This document shows, piece by piece, positions 8,843 through 60,875 of a DNA stretch of 64,000 nt. How positions within the stretch are numbered: the stretch's first letter is position 1; each line of letters begins with the position of its first letter. The notes beneath the pieces are model-generated. The model searched no databases. It was not told the DNA's origin and saw only the letters and a list, made by a program, of their open reading frames with translations. This DNA comes from Candidatus Bathyarchaeota archaeon (GTDB lineage: Archaea > Thermoproteota > Bathyarchaeia > Bathyarchaeales > Bathyarchaeaceae), in contig CAWDYQ010000005.1 in assembly GCA_963806645.1 (NCBI GenBank), positions 79,778 through 143,777 of the forward strand, read 5' to 3'. The position numbers and the translations under genes were made by a program.

Positions 8843-9846
8843 TTAATGTAAAATGGGGAAAATGACAAATAGAGTGACAATACGAAACAATATGTAAAAC
8901 CAGAATTCTAAACCCGTTGAAAAATAGATTATGGATTGTCCAAAAACGTAATTGCTTATTAGATAATTAAAAAGTGGATCCATGAAATAAATCAAAATAC
9001 TTATTCTAGCAACCCAATTGACAAACTTGTTACTGGGAATATTCAATTCTCTTAAGATAATTAAAACTAACAAAACTGCTGACAAGCTAAAAATTATACT
9101 TCTTCCATTTGAGTAAAGCAGATACTTTAGAGCTTCGGTTGTGGTATTAAAATTAAAAAAGTTAGGACAAATCAATAGTAAATAAAGCAACTAATGGAAC
9201 CATAACTAATCCAACTCTTAATCTAGTAACCCTTTGATATATTGAGAATTTGTTAAGCCAAAACCCAGCAATAAAAATTAGGAAATATTGACTAAACACC
9301 TGACCTAGTTTCAATGAAAAATCAATTACCCATGACAATATAGTAAGAAACCATAAAGATGAAACCAACAAAAACTGCAATTTTGGATTTGGAACATATT
9401 TCTCGATAAAACAAAAAATTATCATAAAAATAAGCAAATATGGAATGAACCACAGAAAGTCCCAGTTATATGCTGAATTTAAAACATCAAAAATGTTAAA
9501 CAGCGTAATTTGAGATAACTAATTGAATTATGTTTAATTGTATCCTGCCAATTACAGATTGTAAAATAGAATAAAATATTGAAATAATTACAAAAGGAAT
9601 GTATAATGTTAATATTTTTGACTTTAAGAATTTTCGAATGCTAGATCCACGTTTATGTAATGAATTATATGCCAAAAAACCACTTACGAAGAAAAAACAG
9701 CTAACTAGGAACCATTCTGTTGGGAATATAATTTCTGGAAAAACAAAAAAAAGATCACTATGGACAAAAACTATCAAGAACAATGCTATGATTTTTAACC
9801 AATCAAATTCAATAATTCTTGCATTAGAAACTATTGATTGACCCAT
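8843..9846 (-). pseudogene. acyltransferase-3 family membrane protein split into three ORFs
   Basis: Track ORFs 9496..9846, 9162..9437 and 8843..9190 are collinear polytopic membrane pieces. The N-terminus FDWLKIIALFLIVFVHS is typical of acyltransferase 3. The frame changes twice. Confidence 0.6.
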
Positions 9847-23110: not shown

Positions 23111-23300
23111 TCAAAATCAAGCATTTACTAATGTTTTCTATTGTAGACACAAGTTAAGATTATGACCTTTTTAGATTTATCTCTGTATTACAAAGTTTGA
23201 GATACATCGAGGATCAATCTGGTGTTGCTGAGCGTTTATTCATTTTCATGTATAAAAATGACTAACAAAAAATGTGTGTAAACTGGTTTTTTGATAGTAT

Positions 23301-23317
23301 AAAAAGAAAAAAGGGGG
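23301..23317 (-). terminator. oligo-T signal after the roadblock gene
   Basis: The minus strand reads TTCCCCCTTTTTTCTTTTT about 30 nt after the stop at 23347. Confidence 0.4.
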
Positions 23318-23346
23318 AAAAAATTCTTTTAAAGAAAAAAGAAAGT

Positions 23347-23677
23347 TTAGGTGAGTTCTTTGTAGATTTTTTCATGATTTACGTTTTTTTCCATGAAGAG
23401 GCTAAGACGTTGGTCATCTATGTTCATTGAAAGGAGTTTGGTTTCTTCGCTTTCGAGAAGTATTGTTTGAAGTTCTCCCATCTGTAGATCTTCTGAAATG
23501 TCTAGACCCACATCAAAAGCTGTGGAAGATAACATGGCGTATTCGATTATCTTTTTTGGGTCCTTCAAATCGATTGATGCAGATTTTTCATCTCTTAAAA
23601 TGTATCCTATTATTCCTTCTTGCTCTTTGATTTCTTGTAGTTTTTCTTGCAGGTTTTTCAGTTTTATTTTCTGTCAT
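23347..23677 (-). CDS. roadblock/LC7 (MglB-like) domain protein, frame break near its start
   Basis: The track ORF starts at an internal TTG. The upstream same-frame sequence LKNLQEKLQEIKEQEGIIGYILRDEKSASIDL is the typical roadblock N-terminus. GAGGAAG plus ATG at 23677 (MTENKTEK) is one base out of frame. Confidence 0.6.
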
Positions 23678-23690
23678 ATTTCTTCCTCTT

Positions 23691-24423
23691 TTAAATTGGT
23701 TGGACCTTCACCAGGTCTCCTTTGTTGATTTCTAGACTCTTGCAGAGCTTTTCTGGTATTCTGATTATGTTTTTTCCTTTAAGTTTCTGATCATCAATCT
23801 CTTTTACTTTACAAAGTGTGGAATTTCCGTCTATTGTTTCAATTTTAACGTTTTCAACTGGTTCTTGCACAATTTTTTCTCCGGTTAACGCTGCTCGTAC
23901 ACGAGCTTCGGGGGTCGTCATTAGTGTTCCATGCTGTTAGTATTTCTGTATCAATTTGGACCGAATCGCCAGCGAAGAATCCGCTAAGTGTGTCAACTTG
24001 TAGTTCTTTGTGTTGTGTTTCTTTTTGTGGCGGTGATGCAGGTTGGAGGTGTGTAGGAGTAAAAGCCTCCAATGTTTTGAGAATTGTTGGAAGTATGATG
24101 TTTGTTATTGAGTGAATTTGATTGTTATCCATGTTTTTGGATGTTTTCAAAACAAGATTCATGTCTTCAATTTTAACTAGCATTAATTTTCCGTTTTTTC
24201 CATCAAGTTGAAAACTTTTGATATTTCCAATTGCTTTCGAGTTCTCTTTTATGGTTTCAAAAGATTCTAGGATATTGTTCATTGTTTCTTGGTCGGTTTC
24301 TGTGTCTGCAGCAATTATGTTTGATTCATTTGTAAAAATAAAAGAGTGGTGGATTTCAGGGTACGCTTTCTTGATTTCTTTCAGAGCATTATTTAAGGCA
24401 ATAGCGTAGAGGTCCCTGTTCAT
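23691..24423 (-). CDS. roadblock/LC7-like domain protein, probably fused to a C-terminal AbrB/SpoVT-like domain (two overlapping ORFs)
   Basis: The 189-aa ORF has a roadblock-like pattern (HHSFIFTNESNIIAADTETD...KSFQLDGKNGKLMLVKIEDMNLVL). The 76-aa ORF 23691..23921 ends IIRIPEKLCKSLEINKGDLVKVQPI, which is AbrB/SpoVT-like. The ORFs overlap by 68 nt around a CCCCC run, so this is either a frame break or a genuine overlap. Confidence 0.55.
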
Positions 24424-24445
24424 AGCTTTTCACATCCTGCCCGAT

Positions 24446-24871
24446 CTAAGAGATCTTGAGCAGAATACGCTCCGGAACCCCATCACTTTCCAGCACTATG
24501 TACTTTAGACCTTCAGTGTCGCCTATTTGGTCCACCCAGTTAAGTGCCTCGCGGGCTTTTTGGAGTACCAATAGTCGATCTTGTTGGCTGCGAACTACCT
24601 GTTCAATAGCGGTTAGTTCATGGAATGGGTTAGCATCTAGTATTACGCTAAGATCGCCGACTGTTATCTCTCCGAGGCTGTTTTGCGCTGATTTTTTGCC
24701 AGCGAGTTTGAAGACTACTTCACGTATCTTCTTTGATCTCTCGGCTAGATTACGTATCGAGTCGAGCCTGCGTAGGTATTCACCTAGTATACTCTTTGTT
24801 CTGGATATATCATTGTCCATTGCCTTTGCTATTTCTATCGCGGATTCATATTCTTTTAATTCTACTACCAT
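24446..24871 (-). CDS. hypothetical helical / coiled-coil protein
   Basis: 141-aa track ORF with GGAGGTG SD. The N-terminal half is helical and Arg/Lys/Glu-rich. No family recognised. Confidence 0.6.
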   Translation of the reverse strand: MVVELKEYESAIEIAKAMDNDISRTKSILGEYLRRLDSIRNLAERSKKIREVVFKLAGKKSAQNSLGEITVGDLSVILDANPFHELTAIEQVVRSQQDRLLVLQKAREALNWVDQIGDTEGLKYIVLESDGVPERILLKIS

Positions 24872-24953
24872 ATTTACACCTCCAAATATATGGTGAAAGA
24901 GGGAAGGATTTCTCTCCCCTCAATCTCTTGTTGAAAGTTTCTTTTTTAAAGTT

Positions 24954-25379
24954 CTAAGCTGTGTCTGTGTATGAGCCGATCATTGTACCGTCGTTTGCAA
25001 ACAAGCTTATTGCGTATTTGTTTCCTGCGATCGACATCGTGTAAGTGATTATCATAGATCACTGGCGATCACCTGCAGCGATATGTGAACATGGATTCCG
25101 CTACAGTAGTTATTGTATCACCGTTGACTCTTACTTGAGTAACAGTTGCTTCGCTTGTTCCTGAGTTAGTAACGGTAACGTTGATAGTTATCAGTTGACG
25201 CAGTTGCCTGGTGTAAATGCCATTTCTGTGACTGTTAGTTCGGTTGTTTCCATGAATCCGATGGTTAATGAGCCCATCCATGCTGCGACTGCGATGGAGA
25301 CTGCTACTGTTACTGCGATGAGTATGATGGCTGCGACTACTGGGCTTAGAGCTTTTTTACTCTTTAGGAGTTTTCTCAT
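24954..25379 (-). CDS. archaeal type IV pilin-like protein (class III signal peptide), multiply frame-disrupted
   Basis: AAGGAGGG SD. MRKLLKSKKALSPVVAAIILIAVTVAVSIAVAAWM is a prepilin-type signal (KKA/LSPV). It continues in another frame (ITINVTVTNSGTSEATVTQVRVNGDTITTVAES) and returns to the first frame (MIITYTMSIAGNKYAISLFANDGTMIGSYTDTA*). Confidence 0.65.
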
Positions 25380-25509
25380 TTTTTGTTCTTTCCCTCCTTA
25401 TGAGTTCACAAGTGGACTACGCAATAATTAGATTTAAGTCTTACGACTTAATACAACATATTTTAAAAGACTAAATAACAAAATGAAAAAACAACGAGCA
25501 ACTAATGAC

Positions 25510-25872
25510 CTATTCTAGGCCATCAAACAAATTCAAGAGGAGATCCGCTATCTTGTCGCCTAACTCAGTTATTACGTAATACTTCTTCAAAGGATCAATA
25601 GGTACACTCTTAGCTAAACCTAAAAGCTCCATCTCCATCATCCTGGACCGAAAAGTACCATCACTGAGCGTAAGACCCAAATCGTGCATAAACGCTTTAG
25701 CATTCTTCCATCTTCCATTTCCAAGCTTTAACAGAAAAATACAGTCAATAGCATGGTCCTTCTCTAGCACTGCCTTGATTCCAGAAAGCTTTTCGTTAGT
25801 AAGGATCCTCTTTATCTTTTCTTCTGCCAACCGTATTCCCAACCGTTTTCTTAAACAATTATTATCTTTCAA
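25510..25872 (-). CDS. winged-helix DNA-binding protein
   Basis: 120 aa. ...IFLLKLGNGRWKNAKAFMHDLGLTLSDGTFRSRMMEMELLGLAKSVPIDPLKKYYVITELG is wHTH-like (recognition helix plus wing). Confidence 0.55.
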   Translation of the reverse strand: MKDNNCLRKRLGIRLAEEKIKRILTNEKLSGIKAVLEKDHAIDCIFLLKLGNGRWKNAKAFMHDLGLTLSDGTFRSRMMEMELLGLAKSVPIDPLKKYYVITELGDKIADLLLNLFDGLE

Positions 25873-26181: not shown

Positions 26182-27165
26182 TTGCTAAAAAAGATCAAAG
26201 TAACACCCATAGCCGAAGAAAGCTTAGGCGTAAGATCAATGTGCACATACGTCGAAACCTCAGACGTTAAGATCCTTCTTGACGCTGGCGCATCATTAGC
26301 TCCCAAGAGATTAGGTTATCCTCCACATCCCAGAGAATATCAAGCCTTAGCAGAGTCCCGAAAAAGAATAAGTAAAACAGCAGAAAAAGCCGAAATCATA
26401 ACCATTAGCCACTATCACTTTGATCATCACACCCCATCGTTTACTGACTGGTTCACAAACTGGTCCTCAGCAGAAACAGCAAAAAAAATCTATGAAGACA
26501 AGATTGTGCTCGCTAAAAGTTACCGATCAATGGTTAACGCCAGTCAAAGACGACGAGGATGGATGTTCAAAAAAACCGGAGGCAGCTACGCCAAAAAGTT
26601 GGAAACCGCTGACAGTACCTCATTCACATTTCGGAGACACAAAACTACAATTTTCTGATCCTGTCTTTCATGGAACTGAAAACTCGGACTTAGGATGGGT
26701 ATTAATGACAACCATTGAACATGAAGACGAAAAGGTTCTTTTCACATCTGACATTCAAGGACCCATACAAGTATCCACATTAAATAAAATCTTAGCTCAA
26801 CAACCTCAACTAGTCATCGTCGGGGGACCCCCAACATATCTTAGCCGGACTCAGAATAAACTGAAGAAGAAATAGAACAGGGAATGCAAAATCTGAAATG
26901 GTTAGTTGAAAATATTCCCTTAACCATCATAGAGCATCATCCATTTAGAGACGAAAACTGGAAAAAACTCTTCCAGCCCATATTCGATTCAGCTACAGAA
27001 GCAGGCAATAAAATACTTACAGCAGCTGAATTTGCAGGCGAAAAAAATAATTTCCTAGAGTTTCGTAGGAAAGAACTCTATGAAATAGAACCTCCAAGTC
27101 TTGAATTTGAAAAATGGATAAAATTGCCGGTGCTAAAAAGAAAACTTACACCGCCACCTATTTAG
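26182..27165 (+). CDS. metallo-beta-lactamase-fold protein (archaeal UPF0282-like), split in three ORFs
   Basis: KVTPIAEESLGVRSMCTYVETSDVKILLDAGASLAPKRLGYPPHPREY...SHYHFDHH. The text continues across frames (…FTF/GDTKLQFSDPVFHGTE...GGPPTYL.../EEIEQGMQNLKWLVE...). There is an apparent extra C near 26632 and a shift in a purine run near 26865. Confidence 0.7.
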
Positions 27166-29599: not shown

Positions 29600-29800
29600 C
29601 CTGCTCCATACAACTCTTTACCGTGAAGTTATTCATTTGTTTTATCCTAAATTACAATAATGTTAAAGTATTTAATGCCATAATTGCAGATCGATTCCCC
29701 TGACTATATCAGAGCTTAAACATTATTCATGACTTCAATAAAAAATGTCAAATGTTTTAACATTAAATAATTGAGGAGCAACTATTTTGGTAGGAAAGAA

Positions 29801-30840
29801 ATGTTAGAGATTGACGGAAGTCAAAAGAGCGGCAGCGGAACGATATTACGGTTATCCATCGCACTTGCAGGTATCCTGGAAGAACCATTACACATTTTCA
29901 ATATACGTCACCGACGCAGCAAGCCTGGATTGAGGCCTCAACACCTTGAATCAGTTAATACAGCAGCAAAATTGTGTAATGCAGAAACTGAAGGGGCAGT
30001 GCTTGGTTCTAGGGAATTGTGGTTCAAACCAAATGGAATTGTAAACGGTGAGGTTAATGCAGAGATAGGGTACTGCTGGGAGTATTCCAATGCTGCTGCT
30101 AACTGTCTTGCCTATATGTGCTTACGCTAAGGGGGACGTAAGGGTTCATGTCGTTAACGGCGGCACAGACGTACGCCATGCACCAACGATTAATTATCTA
30201 AATTATGTACTCTTGCCAATGCTTGAACGAATGGGATTGAAATCTTCTTTAACAATCAAAAAGTTCGGATATTACCCAAAGGGGATGGGAGAGGTCATTT
30301 TGAATGTCTACAAAAATTCAAAACTTACATCTCTGCGATTAGAAAATTTCGGAGAAATAGAAGAAGTTGGAGGCATTTCCGTTTGCACTTTCTTGGAAAA
30401 ACAAAAGGTATCAGAGAGACAAGCTGTAACAGCCAAGAACATCCTGAAAAACATCGGTTACACTCCGAGACATCCAAGTCGTTAATGATAAATCCAATCC
30501 TCAGCAAAAGGGCAGTTCCTTGGTTTTATGGGCAAAAACAAACAAAGGTGTTCTATTGGGAGGAGATGCTATTGGAGAACTACGAAAATCTAGCGAAGCA
30601 GTAGGCAGAGAAGCCGCCGAAAACCTATTGAAAGAAACCAAGCAAAAAGCTACGGTGGATGAACATCTTGCGGACATGTTAGTGCCTTACATCGCTTTGG
30701 CAAACGGAAAATCAGCATACTTAACCAGAACGTTAACCGAACATTTAGATACAAACATCTGGCTTGTTGAAAAAATTTTGGACATAAAAATTCAAACAAC
30801 AAGAGTTGGAAACCTAATTCAAGTTGAAAAAGTAAAATAG
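29801..30840 (+). CDS. rtcA: RNA 3'-terminal phosphate cyclase, split in three ORFs
   Basis: MLEIDGSQKSGSGTILRLSIALAGILEEPLHIFNIRHRRSKPGLRPQHL is the RtcA N-terminus. It continues as GSIPMLLLTVLPICAYAKGDVRVHVVNGGTDVRHAPTINYL and then ...VDEHLADMLVPYIALANG in shifted frames. Confidence 0.85.
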
Positions 30841-33115: not shown

Positions 33116-33436
33116 TCAAAAATCACTGTTCCAACTAACGAGAAGTTCATTCTTACTTTTTTCCATAAAATTTGCTTGTTCCTTCTCTCTATTAATTAAG
33201 AGTTCTAGTGCTTCTTCAAAAGGTAAAGCAGAAAACGATATTCCGTCTTTATTGATTAATTCTTTAATTATTAAATTCTTAAGACTAGTAGAGATTTCAT
33301 GTTTAGAATAATTCAAAGTCCCAACTAAATCCACTACTTTTTGTGGACCTTTCTTGGAAATATAAACATAAATCTCAGCCTCTGTTCTTGTTAGTCCAAG
33401 ACTGATTAGTGCTTTTATTACTCGTTCTAAACTCAT
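33116..33436 (-). CDS. small TrmB-like HTH transcriptional regulator
   Basis: MSLERVIKALISLGLTRTEAEIYVYISKKGPQKVVDLVGTLNYSKHEISTSLKNLIIKELI matches the TrmB N-terminal wHTH pattern. I prefer ATG 33436 to the track start 33550, which overlaps the upstream gene. Confidence 0.65.
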   Translation of the reverse strand: MSLERVIKALISLGLTRTEAEIYVYISKKGPQKVVDLVGTLNYSKHEISTSLKNLIIKELINKDGISFSALPFEEALELLINREKEQANFMEKSKNELLVSWNSDF

Positions 33437-33455
33437 GTTATCACATCTTTTTCTG

Positions 33456-33473
33456 AAAAAAAGAAAAAAGGGG
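33456..33473 (-). terminator. oligo-T signal after the 33502..34519 gene
   Basis: The minus strand reads CCCCTTTTTTCTTTTTTT about 30 nt after the stop at 33502. Confidence 0.4.
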
Positions 33474-33501
33474 AAGAATAGAGATTGGAAAGTCTTCACA
33501 G

Positions 33502-34519
33502 TTATGGCTTTAGGAAGCCCCACCATGTGATAGGCCCAAATTCTATCCAATCATGCCCAGCCTTAATTGTTTGTCCTCTAAAAGCCCCAGTTCCTCTCAG
33601 GAATGCACTTGCTTTAGCTCTGTCATAAAATGGTGGAGTAGATTCAGTGGGAGCAATGTAGCCTTCGATAATAATTAGAGCTTTGCCTCTAAAAGTTCCT
33701 CCATCAATGTTAAACACGTATTTATCCCAAATCACAAGACCAACTCCAACATCTTGTGGTGTAATCAGAACCTTCCTCTTAGCATCAGCTGTTCCAGTAT
33801 AAGTTGGAACCCCATTAACATCAATTGTAATATCATAAGTCACTTCTGTAATTCGAAATATTTTGCCATTGTCTTTAATTTTCTCATAGATAATCTTTGA
33901 GACTGCATTAGAGAAATGTACGATAATTGGCGTGGGCCAACATTTTATTTTGCCTTCTCTGGTTAAATGTCGTATGTTTGCGCCTTCCGGGTCTTCAACA
34001 TAACCTGTAGATTCACCGGATATTTTGACTTTCTTTAGTGCCCCTGTCCCATATCCATAGAATTTTCCTTCGCTAAGTCCTGTTGTCATATCAACAATAT
34101 CTTTTACAATAAGAATTAGTGAACTTCCGTCAGCAAATGTGATTATGTCTTTGACATATACGTAAGATTTTTGGTTCACAAAATCAGCATCTGCATCAAT
34201 TATGCTATCATAATCATCAGGTACCTAAAGAAACCATTTCATATTCGTCATCTCCAGGCACTCCAAGCTGAAGTGATATTAAATCAGGAATCCAATCTGC
34301 ACCCTTGACATGCAACCATTCAGAATCAGGTGGAACTGTTCCTTCTGGTTCAAAAGTTCTTGTACCACCAACGGTATCTGCAGCACCGGACATTTCCAAT
34401 TTAAAATAGAGTTTATCACATCTTCTGCATCGTTTTGCTTCCACAACTCCAAGTAATGGTGAAGTTACAAGAACTAGTGTTAGAATAGTAATTGTCAACA
34501 TTCCAATTTTTTTATTCAT
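33502..34519 (-). CDS. secreted protein of unknown function (about 335 aa), one frame break near 34216
   Basis: GGGGGAGGTGAAAAA then ATG 34519. MNKKIGMLTITILTLVLVTSPLLGVVEA is a signal peptide. ORF 34217..34519 ends ...VSLGT*, and a 1-nt shift reads on as PDDYDSIIDADADFVNQKSYVYV... into ORF 33502..34179. Confidence 0.6.
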
Positions 34520-49363: not shown

Positions 49364-50025
49364 ATGCACATACCCGACGGTTTCCTGAGCCTATCAATAT
49401 GCATAGTAATGTACGTAATATCCCTAGGGTTCCTGTTCTGGTCATGGAAAAAAACAAAAAATTCCTACTCTAGCTCGATGACTCCCCTGTTAGCTGTTTC
49501 TAGCGCTTTCGTTTTTGCAGCTCAGATGATAAACTTTCCAATCCTTTATGGCACAAGCGGACATCTGGTAGGTGGAACTTTTCTATCTGTTCTTCTTGGA
49601 CCTTATGCTGCAATATTAAGCATGACAATCGTTGTGATAATGCAAGCACTGTTTTTTGCTGACGGTGGCATCTTTACCTTTGGTGCAAACGTTTTAACAT
49701 GGCAATCATCGGAGGGCTCAGTTTCTTTTTAGTTAAAGCTTTAACTCATGAATCCAAAAGTAATAGCCGGTTTTTCTTTAGTGTCTTTGTGTCTTCTTGG
49801 ATTTCTATGGTGCTTGGGGCCTTAGCTTGCGGTTTGCAAATAGGATTTTCTCCATTATTCTCAGCGGCAGGAGGAATTGTTGTTACAGTCCCTACTATGG
49901 TTTTTTGGCATATTTTAATTGGTTTTGGTGAGGCTATAATTACGGCAACTTTGCTTACTCAACTAAAGCGAATGCCATCCACTGTCTTATCCTCTTTTAC
50001 AACTCTTCGAGGTGGACTTGATTGA
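49364..50025 (+). CDS. cbiM: CbiM/NikM-type Co/Ni ECF transporter substrate component, one frame break near 49700
   Basis: MHIPDGFLS N-terminus, GTSGHLVGG, and polytopic membrane topology. ORFs 49364..49732 and 49699..50025 overlap in different frames. Confidence 0.8.
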
Positions 50026-50297
50026 ATAATTATGTTAAAGCCTTAATTGTCATACTTGTTTGTATGGCCGTTTTGATACCATTTGCTTCAAGTGATCCTG
50101 ATGGACTAGAACGGGTAGCAGAAGACCTTGGTGTAGAAGAAACGGAATCACCATCTGGAGGTCTAATGCCGGACTACACTGTTCCTATGGTTAAAAACGA
50201 TTACGGCTCAACACTTATTGCCGGAGTTATTGGTGTCTTTCTGGTTTTAGGAGCCGGTTTAGTGCTTGGAAAAACACTAACAAAGCATGACAATTAA
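50022..50297 (+). CDS. PDGLE-domain membrane protein (CbiN/NikN-like partner of CbiM)
   Basis: TM helix, then SSDPDGLERVAEDLG (PDGLE motif), then a C-terminal TM helix. The start overlaps the cbiM stop. Confidence 0.65.
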   Translation: MNNYVKALIVILVCMAVLIPFASSDPDGLERVAEDLGVEETESPSGGLMPDYTVPMVKNDYGSTLIAGVIGVFLVLGAGLVLGKTLTKHDN

Positions 50298-52256: not shown

Positions 52257-52965
52257 ATGGACATAAAGGGATTTATCGACGTTAGTTTCGTTGACTGGGA
52301 TTCCAAAATTACCTCAGTTATCTTCCTCCCAAATTGCAACTTTCGTTGTCCCTTTTGTCACAACGTAAATCTTGTTCTTAATCCTGAAAAACTAGAAACA
52401 ATACCAATGACATATCTGGATGATCAACTCGAACAACAGAAAAATTGGATTGACGGAATATGCATTACAGGCGGAGAACCAACCCTCCACAAAGATCTAC
52501 CTGAACTGTGTACTCTATTAAAGAAAAAAGGATTCTTAATCAAACTGGATACAAACGGTACTAATCCATCCTATGCTAAGGGAGCTTATTGCGAGAAGCC
52601 TCATAGATTATGTGGCCATGGACATCAAGGCACCACTTACTGACAAGAAATATTCCAAAGCAACTGGAGTTAATACAGAGAAAATGTTAAAAAATGTAAA
52701 GGAAAGCATAAAACTTTTGATAGAATCCAATATAGACTATGAATTCAGAACCACAGTTGTTCCTACGCTCCATGACGAAGAGGACATAAAACAGATATGT
52801 CACAGCTTGAAAGGATGCCAAAAATATATTTTACAGAAGTTTGATGTCAGCATTGGAAAAACAACTATAAATCCTGACTTGATATCAAAATCGTTTAGCG
52901 AAGAAGAAATGCAAAATTTTTTAGTTTCAGCTCAGGAAATAATTCCAAACACTAAACTTAGGTAA
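52257..52965 (+). CDS. radical SAM activating enzyme (anaerobic RNR activase / PflA-like), one frame break near 52590
   Basis: GFIDVSFVDWDSKITSVIFLPNCNFRCPFCHN, GICITGGEPTL and KLDTNGTNP. The C-terminal half continues in the overlapping ORF 52573..52965. Confidence 0.75.
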
Positions 52966-60101: not shown

Positions 60102-60875
60102 TTAGCCCCTCCCAAACAATGTTACGTCAGGAAAGATTTCAACGCCGTTGGTATCAATTGTATAAGGAACAACGTTTGGATTAATTTTAACACCTCTCAT
60201 TTTTGTAACCTGCAAAGCCCGTGTTGTAACTCCATTAGAAAACAAAGTCTGTGCAAGAATGACTCCATGCGCCAAATATTCTTCAACTGAAACCTTACGA
60301 TTAAGACTCAAACGTCCCAATTCTGAAGTTACAAGAGTGGTGATCCCTAAATCTGACAAAGACTCAAATAAATCAACAATAGAGTTTCTTCGCTCAATAG
60401 GATCAGGAAAGCGTTGAAAAAGTGTAGCAAGCGTATCCACTACAACTCTCTTGGCGTTAATTCTGTGAATTTCAGACTCTATTGATTCAACTAACCGGTC
60501 TATCGGTAGTTGCTTAGTTCTCAAGTTGGCTCCGTTTTCTCCAAATTTTGCTCCTAATGCTGCAGATCTTGACATTCGAGTAGCATCTAAAAAGACAAAT
60601 TTTCCCTCTTCTTCAGCTTTCTTGAAATCCCATCCAAAATTCTGCATTTCAACCAAATAATGGTCTTTGCCTTCATCTAAACTCACAAAAATTGCACCTT
60701 CCTCTAAGTCACTAATTCCTTTGTATAAGAATTGAGAACAAAGAATTGTTTTTCCAGATCCAGGTCCCCCAACAAGCAAAATTACTCTCCCTTCTGGGAA
60801 ACCTCCACTTACTAAATCATTTAATCCTGGGATTCCAGTTTCAACCGTATTCATTTTTTTCACCTTTTTAAACAA
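60102..60875 (-). CDS. single-domain KaiC/RadA-like ATPase (canonical Walker A)
   Basis: VETGIPGLNDLVSGGFPEGRVILLVGGPGSGKTILCSQFLYKG, with Walker B-like VVVDTLATL. 257 aa. Confidence 0.85.
   Translation of the reverse strand: MFKKVKKMNTVETGIPGLNDLVSGGFPEGRVILLVGGPGSGKTILCSQFLYKGISDLEEGAIFVSLDEGKDHYLVEMQNFGWDFKKAEEEGKFVFLDATRMSRSAALGAKFGENGANLRTKQLPIDRLVESIESEIHRINAKRVVVDTLATLFQRFPDPIERRNSIVDLFESLSDLGITTLVTSELGRLSLNRKVSVEEYLAHGVILAQTLFSNGVTTRALQVTKMRGVKINPNVVPYTIDTNGVEIFPDVTLFGRG

Follow-up and report, generated by a model that had tools for sequence, protein, structure and literature searches.

The stretch of DNA analyzed here, hereafter called the window, comprises 64,000 nt of contig CAWDYQ010000005.1 of Candidatus Bathyarchaeota archaeon, and all coordinates refer to it. 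Its G+C content is ~36%, and its nearest database proteins bear the name Candidatus Bathyarchaeota or Thermoproteota. On the minus strand, from position 25379 to position 23347, lie four genes encoding a type IV pilin, a 141-aa protein (hel141), a fusion of a roadblock domain to a second domain, and a small roadblock-like protein. This layout, including the gaps of 82, 22, and 13 nt that separate the genes in operon order, had been described in an earlier sequence-only reading, and its coordinates and spacers were reproduced. Together with HTH110, a gene located upstream of the pilin gene, the four genes are considered here as a putative type IV pilus module. To our knowledge, hardly anything has been learned about how archaeal type IV pili are controlled from the cytoplasm, and we know of no explanation for the roadblock genes that were seen in archaeal pilus loci in 2016.

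The pilin gene (24954–25379, minus strand) is frameshifted; its product is a type IV pilin that has both a class III signal peptide (KKA/LSPVVAAIILIAV) and an Ig-like or CARDB-like head, and the sequence reads KKA/LSPVVAAIILIAVTVAVSIAVAAW. The repaired protein bears out the class III signal that had been claimed, as it reaches 30.1 bits with TIGR02537 (arch_flag_Nterm, cut-off 20) across residues 7–37. It also matches CARDB (27.1 bits, cut-off 22.7), and the Pfam family Pilin_N stays under threshold (17.2 vs. 25.2 bits). The signal peptide is followed by a hydrophobic N-terminal helix, the combination that characterizes archaeal type IV pilins, and intact homologues are 138–141 aa long. The pilin N-terminus is nearly invariant. 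The middle of the gene (25003–25225) is hypervariable: blastn gives no alignment of this stretch to three otherwise ~95% identical contigs (L034–L036), with flanks that are 95–97% identical. Tandem pilin duplicates occur in some relatives (L009, L010). The variable middle and the tandem copies fit a surface-exposed major pilin.

Three of the four operon genes are interrupted, with at least four frameshifts within 2 kb, and the open reading frames (ORFs) of hel141 and HTH110 are unbroken. Mapping of both roadblock genes against the same three contigs revealed an extra A at ~23908 in the fusion gene (GAAG vs. GAG), which splits it into ORFs of 189 and 76 aa, and an extra A at ~23658 in the small roadblock gene (A5 vs. 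A4), which cuts off the ATG frame just after the start codon. In the pilin gene, the start and the end share a frame and at least two internal shifts fall within ~25205–25045, where the middle matches homologues in other frames. Most likely, the frameshifts in the window are assembly errors. Decay of the locus in this genome, where the frameshifts of the pilin and of both roadblock genes would be real and the genes pseudogenes, is an unlikely alternative. The density of the breaks would suit it (at least four in 2 kb plus two in the metallo-beta-lactamase (MBL)-fold gene described below), as would the intact state of all ORFs along the 5.6 kb from UbiA to PFK when compared with L003 and the position of some indels outside long homopolymers. 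However, both roadblock shifts are single extra A residues in A-runs relative to the three contigs, hel141 and HTH110 are intact, and similar breaks occur in a separate assembly (L021). Furthermore, split-looking ORF pairs are spread over the whole window, which suggests, from the sequence, an error-prone assembly. The pilin shifts fall exactly in the hypervariable stretch, where a consensus of mixed strains would be prone to errors, and this confinement fits a strain-level diversification of the pilin that confused the consensus.

Other broken genes were noted alongside. The MBL-fold-like gene (26182–27165, plus strand) is divergent from the operon; its relatives are 326–327 aa long, carry the motif ISHYHFDHH and lack a Pfam assignment, and in the window it is divided into three ORFs by two compensating shifts at ~26631 and ~26850. 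Same-strand ORF fragments at 8843–9437, 29771–30840, 33116–34179, 49364–50297, and 52257–52965 look like frameshifted genes. At L021 (6001–7070), from the Bathyarchaeota metagenome-assembled genome MFD09779.bin.2.126, the tblastn matches to both roadblock genes are likewise fragmented.

The fusion gene (23691–24423, minus strand) encodes, after repair, a 243-aa protein composed of a roadblock N-domain, a short linker and a C-domain resembling the double-psi beta-barrel of the Cdc48 N-domain. A roadblock gene fused to a second domain had been read from the sequence, and the repaired protein has 329 database homologues, the best 120 of which are 231–247 aa long, with 98–100% query coverage and up to 94% identity. 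Because full-length homologues match the repaired protein, the fusion is genuine and its breaks are local to this assembly. Remoter relatives of 228–317 aa keep the two-domain architecture and vary in the acidic linker. The structure was taken from the AlphaFold2 (AF2) model of a homologue (P0001) which is 94% identical to the repaired protein of the window. The predicted local distance difference test (pLDDT) score of this model is 75 overall and ~84 in the roadblock N-domain.

In the model, the N-domain has the elements H3–20, E24–31, E36–39, H45–62, E70–75, E78–85, E88–94, and H100–121 (H, helix; E, strand), that is, the alpha-beta-beta-alpha-beta-beta-beta-alpha topology of the roadblock fold. 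Foldseek searches recovered 7yh1, 9jue, 7f8m, 1veu, 6hjm, and 3l7h with expect values (E) of 2e-6 to 3e-5; by class, the matches comprise Asgard roadblocks, MP1/p14, LAMTOR subunits, Rag C-terminal domains and MglB at E ~1e-6 to 1e-5. The roadblock assignment of the earlier reading is thus upheld for this domain by topology and structural matches. Sequence profiles are less responsive: the fusion protein has no match to Robl_LC7 (PF03259, gathering threshold 23 bits) even at E 10, and its profile search against the PDB finds the roadblock 7f8m at E 0.12. The Joint Genome Institute (JGI) pipeline labels many members of the fusion family and of the small-protein family as Roadblock/LC7/MglB. A Pfam search with the raw fragments of the window left the roadblock domain unmatched and returned only MAPKK1_Int at E 0.09, so that homologue profiles and the model were needed.

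The C-domain had been read as an AbrB-like, DNA-binding domain. The fused barrel stands, but its reading as a DNA-binding AbrB domain is not supported. Across ~105 residues of a single chain, the AF2 model shows E139–146, E155–158, H159–166, (H171–180), E191–195, E201–209, E219–223, H224–230, and E237–242, which corresponds to two successive beta-beta-alpha-beta units, as in the Cdc48/p97/VAT N-domain. The latter (CDC48_N, PF02359) is the best match of the C-domain, with Foldseek hits to 7dg9, 7dg7, and p97. The structures 7du7, 7di0, 7dvh, 7dg9, and 7dww align with target template modeling (TM) scores of 0.76–0.83 and E 6e-6 to 2e-5, and a VAT-derived designed barrel is found by PDB profile search at E 5e-5. 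Pfam CDC48_N reaches 21–23.8 bits (E 5e-5 to 4e-4), under its gathering threshold of 35.1 bits, and one homologue (P0011) carries a precomputed PF02359 match. In contrast to Cdc48/p97, the fusion protein has neither an AAA+ ATPase nor a beta-clam subdomain. Its barrel halves also lack a detectable repeat, hhalign aligning only the GD-V motif with a probability of 0.5%, and distant relatives of the fusion have a degenerate first GD box.

AbrB, MazE and SpoVT domains belong with the double-psi barrels to a common cradle-loop barrel superfamily. The last 30 residues of the C-domain align to the AbrB/MazE beta-alpha-beta element, and MazE_antitoxin (PF04014) is matched over 28 residues only, at 14.7–16.7 bits (E 0.007–0.03; threshold 24.7 bits), with AbrB entries of the PDB at E 0.3–0.4; none of these scores is significant. 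AbrB domains are chains of ~50 aa that build their barrel by dimerizing, whereas the C-domain provides both halves in a single chain. Judged by these profiles and the model, the C-domain fits a Cdc48/VAT-N-type double-psi barrel better than an AbrB DNA-binding domain; the label "AbrB-like" is only distantly right, and the barrel type is one known for protein binding. DNA binding is conceivable because the second half of the C-domain is basic (pI ~9.3).

It has to be considered whether the fusion protein is a one-component transcription factor, in which an AbrB-like barrel would bind the pilin promoter and the roadblock domain would sense or dimerize, as a reversed arrangement of SpoVT (AbrB plus GAF). 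The AbrB/MazE element of the second barrel half (G-K-N-I-I-R-I-P-E-K-L-...-G-D-L-V-K-V), its similarity to MazE_antitoxin and to AbrB structures at the values given above, its median isoelectric point (pI) of 9.25, and an inverted repeat flanked by the TATA box and the Shine-Dalgarno sequence of the pilin promoter are all in keeping with this explanation. Yet the best matches are Cdc48/VAT-N barrels, which bind proteins, the single chain of ~105 aa is unlike a swapped-hairpin dimer of 50-aa chains, and the whole barrel domain is approximately neutral in charge. Moreover, HTH110 accompanies the pilin in every lineage, including those lacking roadblock genes, and is the likelier candidate for the operator. 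A role as a transcription factor is therefore regarded as rather improbable.

The last gene (23347–23677, minus strand) encodes the small roadblock-like protein of ~109 aa after repair, assigned by family profiles; intact homologues are 109–118 aa long. Within this family, 28 of 36 members show sub-threshold matches to Robl_LC7 (E ≤1; best E 0.0039; 14.1 bits in the first member). The family profile aligns in register with the Drosophila roadblock 3l7h at E 0.029 and with two Asgard roadblocks at E 0.19–0.38, and many members are named COG2018-type, Roadblock/LC7/MglB, by the JGI. The second roadblock gene of the sequence-only reading is accordingly retained less firmly than the first: from these profiles, the small protein appears to be a roadblock protein, with weaker but consistent support. 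The small protein and the fusion cannot be classed as close paralogues, as hhalign of the two families is nearly empty (probability 2%).

The remaining member of the operon, hel141 (24446–24871, minus strand), is an intact ORF encoding a 141-aa cytoplasmic alpha/beta protein, 100% identical to a database protein (P0121). It had been described as a helical, coiled-coil protein; the long helices are present, whereas the AF2 model (pLDDT 91.7, predicted TM score 0.80) is not that of a plain coiled coil. The chain is folded as beta-alpha-betabeta-alpha-betabeta, with a strand, a 47-aa helix, a hairpin, a 29-aa helix and a second hairpin, and the strands form a five-stranded sheet. With 3803 close sequences and 127 clusters at 50% identity, the family is a large one, and it falls outside the families of Pfam and NCBIfam. 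Conservation per locus amounts to 81–96% identity in hel141, 53–80% in the fusion protein and ~50% in the pilin, and such high conservation of hel141 fits a protein with several fixed partners. Some relatives (P0369, P0374, P0376–P0378, P0383) have a lysine/glutamate-rich N-terminal extension of 50–80 residues, which is probably disordered, and no transmembrane segment.

Structure comparisons of hel141 gave no significant match in the PDB, the best Foldseek hits being prefoldin or V1-D-like proteins at E ≥0.2. A profile search against the PDB returned only coiled-coil noise (occludin, spike S2), and a PilN/PilO-like arrangement of two alpha-beta-beta units is not claimed, such structures being missing from the top 50 Foldseek hits. 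The prefoldin subunits, FliJ and the V1 subunit D share with hel141 a coiled-coil hairpin of antiparallel helices that is supplemented by short beta elements; they differ from it in topology, and none of these matches is significant. Could hel141 be a prefoldin-like chaperone that holds the N-terminal helix of the pre-pilin before membrane insertion, with the roadblock pair as a delivery adaptor? The best, if weak, Foldseek matches are indeed prefoldin subunits (6nr8_6 at E 0.2 and probability 0.80, then 2zqm, 2zdi, and 1fxk). Sub-threshold matches to Pfam Prefoldin (PF02996/PF01920) occur in 7 of 63 hel141 relatives, several family members show sub-threshold Prefoldin or FliJ matches, and Marsarchaeota members bear the UniRef name "Prefoldin subunit alpha"; hel141 of the window itself has no Pfam match. 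The gene lies directly 3' of the pilin gene in the clade of the window and in L030 and beside a pilin in L037, and both hel141 and the pilin N-terminus are nearly invariant. Against this idea, the predicted order of strand, helix, hairpin, helix and hairpin differs from the alpha and beta topologies of prefoldin and every match is insignificant. Furthermore, the Marsarchaeota-type homologue follows pilB, pilC and a 402-aa protein with no recognizable pilin, and a pilin is also missing near some other relatives. A chaperone function of this kind is thus considered doubtful.

The genes appear to share one set of expression signals. A BRE (B recognition element)/TATA-type promoter (AGTCGTAAGACTTAAATCT; 25430–25448, minus strand) corresponds to the archaeal promoter consensus; its BRE/TATA-like motif, AGTCGTAAGAYTTAAATCT, lies ~60 nt 5' of the pilin ATG and is nearly invariant among the relatives compared, which include close relatives, L030, and 28 distant metagenome loci. 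By its agreement with this consensus, the motif would act as the promoter of the operon. The promoter and the oligo-T signal reported in the sequence-only reading both recur in relatives: in the window, runs of T6, T6, T6, and T5 (23297–23346, minus strand) directly follow the last gene, and runs of T5–T8 likewise follow the small roadblock gene in L001, L003, L009, L011, L012, and L033. They are a putative archaeal terminator-like signal. The 82-nt spacer between the pilin gene and hel141 contains a conserved G-rich/C-rich stem-loop (24899–24921, minus strand), followed on its 3' side by a near-invariant CTTTCACCAT..TTGGAGGTGTAAATATG segment that includes GGAGGTG, complementary to 16S rRNA. 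Each of the 16 homologous spacers gives a fold of −9 to −16 kcal/mol (z −1.5 to −4.1), and comparison of the homologous spacers shows no conserved TATA box in them. As the 22- and 13-nt gaps, the single conserved promoter, the terminator runs and the TATA-free spacer all fit one transcription unit, the operon is presumably expressed as a single transcript that is attenuated or processed after the pilin.

Upstream of the pilin gene, HTH110 (25510–25842, minus strand) encodes a small conserved protein of ~110 aa, which occupies this place in all relatives. The ORF is extendable to a TTG at 25872, and the TTG at 25842 yields the start of the relatives (MGIRLAEEK). Homologues with 72–94% identity hold the equivalent place in L001–L021, and one with 58% identity is found within the pilB-pilC locus L030. 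The protein has no sequence match in Pfam, NCBIfam or the PDB, and its family profile likewise finds nothing in the PDB. HTH110 is a possible winged-helix regulator, its helix-turn-helix (HTH) character being purely conjectural. The region from the TATA box to the Shine-Dalgarno sequence contains an imperfect inverted repeat (AGTCCAC TT GTGAACT; 25403–25418, minus strand), which has a perfect form in L012 (AGTTCACTTGTGAACT; AGTTCAC-TT-GTGAACT). The repeat position was also noted in L012, L021, L033 and L053–L093, and the right half, GTGAAC, is kept in most relatives, the distant group included. By its position near the expected transcription start, the repeat is a candidate operator, perhaps for the adjacent HTH110.

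Gene neighborhoods in relatives carry the main part of the argument. The order HTH110, pilin, hel141, roadblock-barrel fusion, small roadblock gene is found in L001–L021 and L033–L036. A metagenome scan added 66 more distant loci, on contigs without taxonomy, in which the fusion protein is 29–47% identical; the five-gene order is held in all 22 that provide enough sequence, and the flanks there differ. The gene order is far beyond chance, and the distant loci speak strongly against a chance synteny. In 10 of the 66 distant loci, pilB and pilC stand directly beside the module (L054, L055, L060, L065, L066, L068, L089, L092, L094, L115); they are divergent and upstream in nine of these loci, and in L115 they are located downstream of the small roadblock gene, in the same orientation.

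Outside this group, hel141 relatives are found in other pilus loci. L030 encodes pilin, hel141 homologue, PilB and PilC in succession (T2SSE plus PilB3_C; T2SSF at 61 bits), with the HTH110 homologue nearby. In the Marsarchaeota-type loci L032 and L039–L047, PilB and PilC are followed, after further genes, by the 402-aa protein and the hel141 homologue, and in L037 and L038 a hel141 relative adjoins a Pilin_N gene. The hel141-bearing pilus loci of other lineages do not contain the roadblock pair. This distribution makes hel141 a widespread pilus-linked partner and the roadblock pair an addition specific to one group, presumably the Bathyarchaeia. A functional link between the roadblock proteins and the pilin had already been proposed for the window. 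This tie is now much stronger because pilB and pilC adjoin the module and hel141 travels with pilins or with pilB and pilC elsewhere.

Two kinds of protein adjoin hel141 relatives in these loci. One is a protein of ~400 aa with weak squalene-cyclase-like and TrmB-C-like matches, which is encoded at L032 (4700–5908), L027 (529–1770) and L039–L047 and accompanies the hel141 relatives of the Marsarchaeota-type pilB-pilC loci; the proteins of L027 and L032 are homologous (E 6.5e-13). Squalene cyclase genes are noted for other archaeal pilus loci in the text of an earlier survey (Makarova et al., 2016; PMC4858521). The other kind, seen in two lineages, comprises secreted proteins of very large size in which CarboxypepD_reg domains are repeated, at L031 (2659–5256) and L037 (1–3238 and 3948–6380); they are possible adhesins or S-layer-like partners of the pilus locus.

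The locus contains no gene for a small GTPase, as had been stated before. A Walker A scan of the window gives only ABCE1-like, Mrp-like and KaiC/RadA-like ORFs, as read from the sequence, and no Walker A ORF of <320 aa is present within 6 kb on either side in the 66 related loci. The KaiC/RadA-like P-loop ORF (60105–60875, minus strand) encodes 257 aa, at a distance of ~35 kb from the operon. Some pilus and archaellum systems of archaea are accompanied by KaiC-like ATPases. Coupling of roadblock genes to an mglA-like gene has been defined as a distance within four genes (Wuichet and Sogaard-Andersen, 2014), and the genes described here are not coupled in this sense. Because orphan MglB homologues are common among prokaryotes (328 of 749, ~44%; PMC4316618), the missing neighbor GTPase is not exceptional.

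Taken as a whole, the locus is interpreted as a type IV pilus module from a Bathyarchaeia archaeon, transcribed as one unit and including cytoplasmic accessory or regulatory proteins, an interpretation held with slightly more than even confidence. A pilus-linked function is well supported. Gene content, folds, conservation of the operon, linkage to pilB and pilC and the absence of a neighboring GTPase are shown by the present analysis, and we infer the mechanism, all protein contacts and the regulatory output. The observation of roadblock genes in archaeal pilus loci by Makarova et al. (2016) provides an independent point for this interpretation.

Several observations weigh against it. Both roadblock assignments remain below the Pfam gathering threshold, and the first barrel half is modeled at a pLDDT of only 54–76, with residues 160–190 at 54–63. 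Covariation in the spacer stem-loop is weak (3 of 11 pairs compensatory in RNAalifold, covariation term −0.48 kcal/mol), so that the case for this element is built mainly on the folding of individual sequences. The broken genes may leave the copy in the window non-functional in this organism. There is no pilB or pilC within the window, and across its clade the two genes are not adjacent to the module; the flanking MBL-fold gene and UbiA are syntenic there too, and conservation within the clade could partly reflect shared descent. Finally, some hel141 relatives lack nearby pilus genes (L022, L024, L048–L052).

The view that the roadblock genes are functionally unrelated to the pilin, being inherited in synteny and serving an unrelated nucleoside triphosphatase (NTPase) encoded elsewhere in the genome, would agree with the synteny of the clade from the MBL-fold gene to UbiA, with the frequency of orphan MglB-type proteins, and with the absence of the roadblock pair from hel141-bearing pilus loci of other lineages, and is very unlikely given that order and tight spacing persist in 22 of 22 loci despite 29–47% identity of the fusion and changed flanks, that in L115 pilB and pilC come after the small roadblock gene in the same orientation, that promoter and terminator are single and conserved, and that further archaeal pilus loci in the text of PMC4858521 also contain roadblock genes.

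For the proposed pilus module, the following course of events is conceivable. The strong, conserved BRE/TATA promoter would drive the major pilin, and the stem-loop after the pilin would probably lower or separate the expression of the three downstream cytoplasmic genes before the transcription unit ends at the oligo-T runs. Judging by gene neighborhoods, hel141 would be in contact with the machinery of pilus assembly or with the pre-pilin; it is proposed as the contact component because it is the sole partner kept beside pilins or pilB and pilC in several archaeal lineages. Since roadblock domains work as dimers, a heterodimer is proposed for the two roadblock proteins, which, from knowledge of the family, would most likely form a platform. 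In one subunit of this platform, a flexible linker would carry the protein-binding module, the Cdc48-N-type double-psi barrel. The platform may dock on hel141, on the PilB ATPase or on both, and may tune the time or place of pilus assembly, possibly under an unlinked NTPase. In its most specific form, put forward only tentatively and as the less probable part of the interpretation, the proposal is that hel141, the roadblock-barrel protein and the small roadblock protein constitute an unrecognized cytoplasmic complex which docks on PilB/PilC and controls pilus assembly with no small GTPase dedicated to it. By analogy, such a complex would be an archaeal counterpart of the MglB/MglC or Ragulator platforms, wired to the secretion ATPase by a Cdc48-N-type barrel.

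Of the systems known, MglA/MglB of Myxococcus xanthus shares with the present locus the roadblock fold (Foldseek match to MglB, 6hjm, at E 1e-5) and a tie to type IV pili, and two roadblock paralogues, MglB and MglC, cooperate in Myxococcus (PMC9481161). The present locus differs in its lack of an MglA-like GTPase (in the window and within 6 kb in the 66 loci), in an identity to MglB of only 12–14%, and in its host, an archaeon. Roadblock heterodimers also form platforms on an elongated helical partner in Ragulator (LAMTOR1 with LAMTOR2/3 and 4/5) and in dynein LC7, and MP1/p14 and LAMTOR match the fusion N-domain at Foldseek E ~3e-6 to 1e-5. Unlike the locus described here, these systems belong to eukaryotes and are linked with Rag GTPases or dynein. 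Likening hel141 to the helical scaffold of Ragulator is a purely speculative analogy.

The closest parallel lies in the archaea themselves. Makarova et al. (2016; PMC4858521) already reported genes for roadblock/LC7 proteins as frequent members of the type IV pilus loci of archaea, for which they also list several uncharacterized cytoplasmic families. The roadblock/LC7 family arCOG02603 of that survey is likewise cytoplasmic, so far without a function, and encoded in pilus loci; it is likened to the present proteins by this genomic context. Another coiled-coil family in the survey's text, arCOG07564 from halobacterial pilus loci, is set beside hel141 by its description. Compared with that text, the distinguishing features of the present locus are the pair of roadblock genes, the double-psi barrel fusion and their constant position within a five-gene unit that includes hel141. 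Bathyarchaeota are absent from the main text of the survey, and a literature search found no paper describing a fusion of roadblock and double-psi barrel.

The locus thus extends an already known association of roadblock proteins with pilus loci (Makarova et al., 2016) by a compact, strongly conserved five-gene unit in which a pilin is combined with a new, very conserved alpha/beta protein that accompanies pilins and pilB-pilC across lineages and with a roadblock pair, one member of which bears a protein-binding barrel. Should the three-protein complex on the pilus motor not be true, a corrected annotation for three unannotated protein families would still be gained. If true, it would mean that roadblock platforms work outside a small-GTPase context in archaea, and it would provide a defined control system for a surface filament in the widespread, uncultured Bathyarchaeia.

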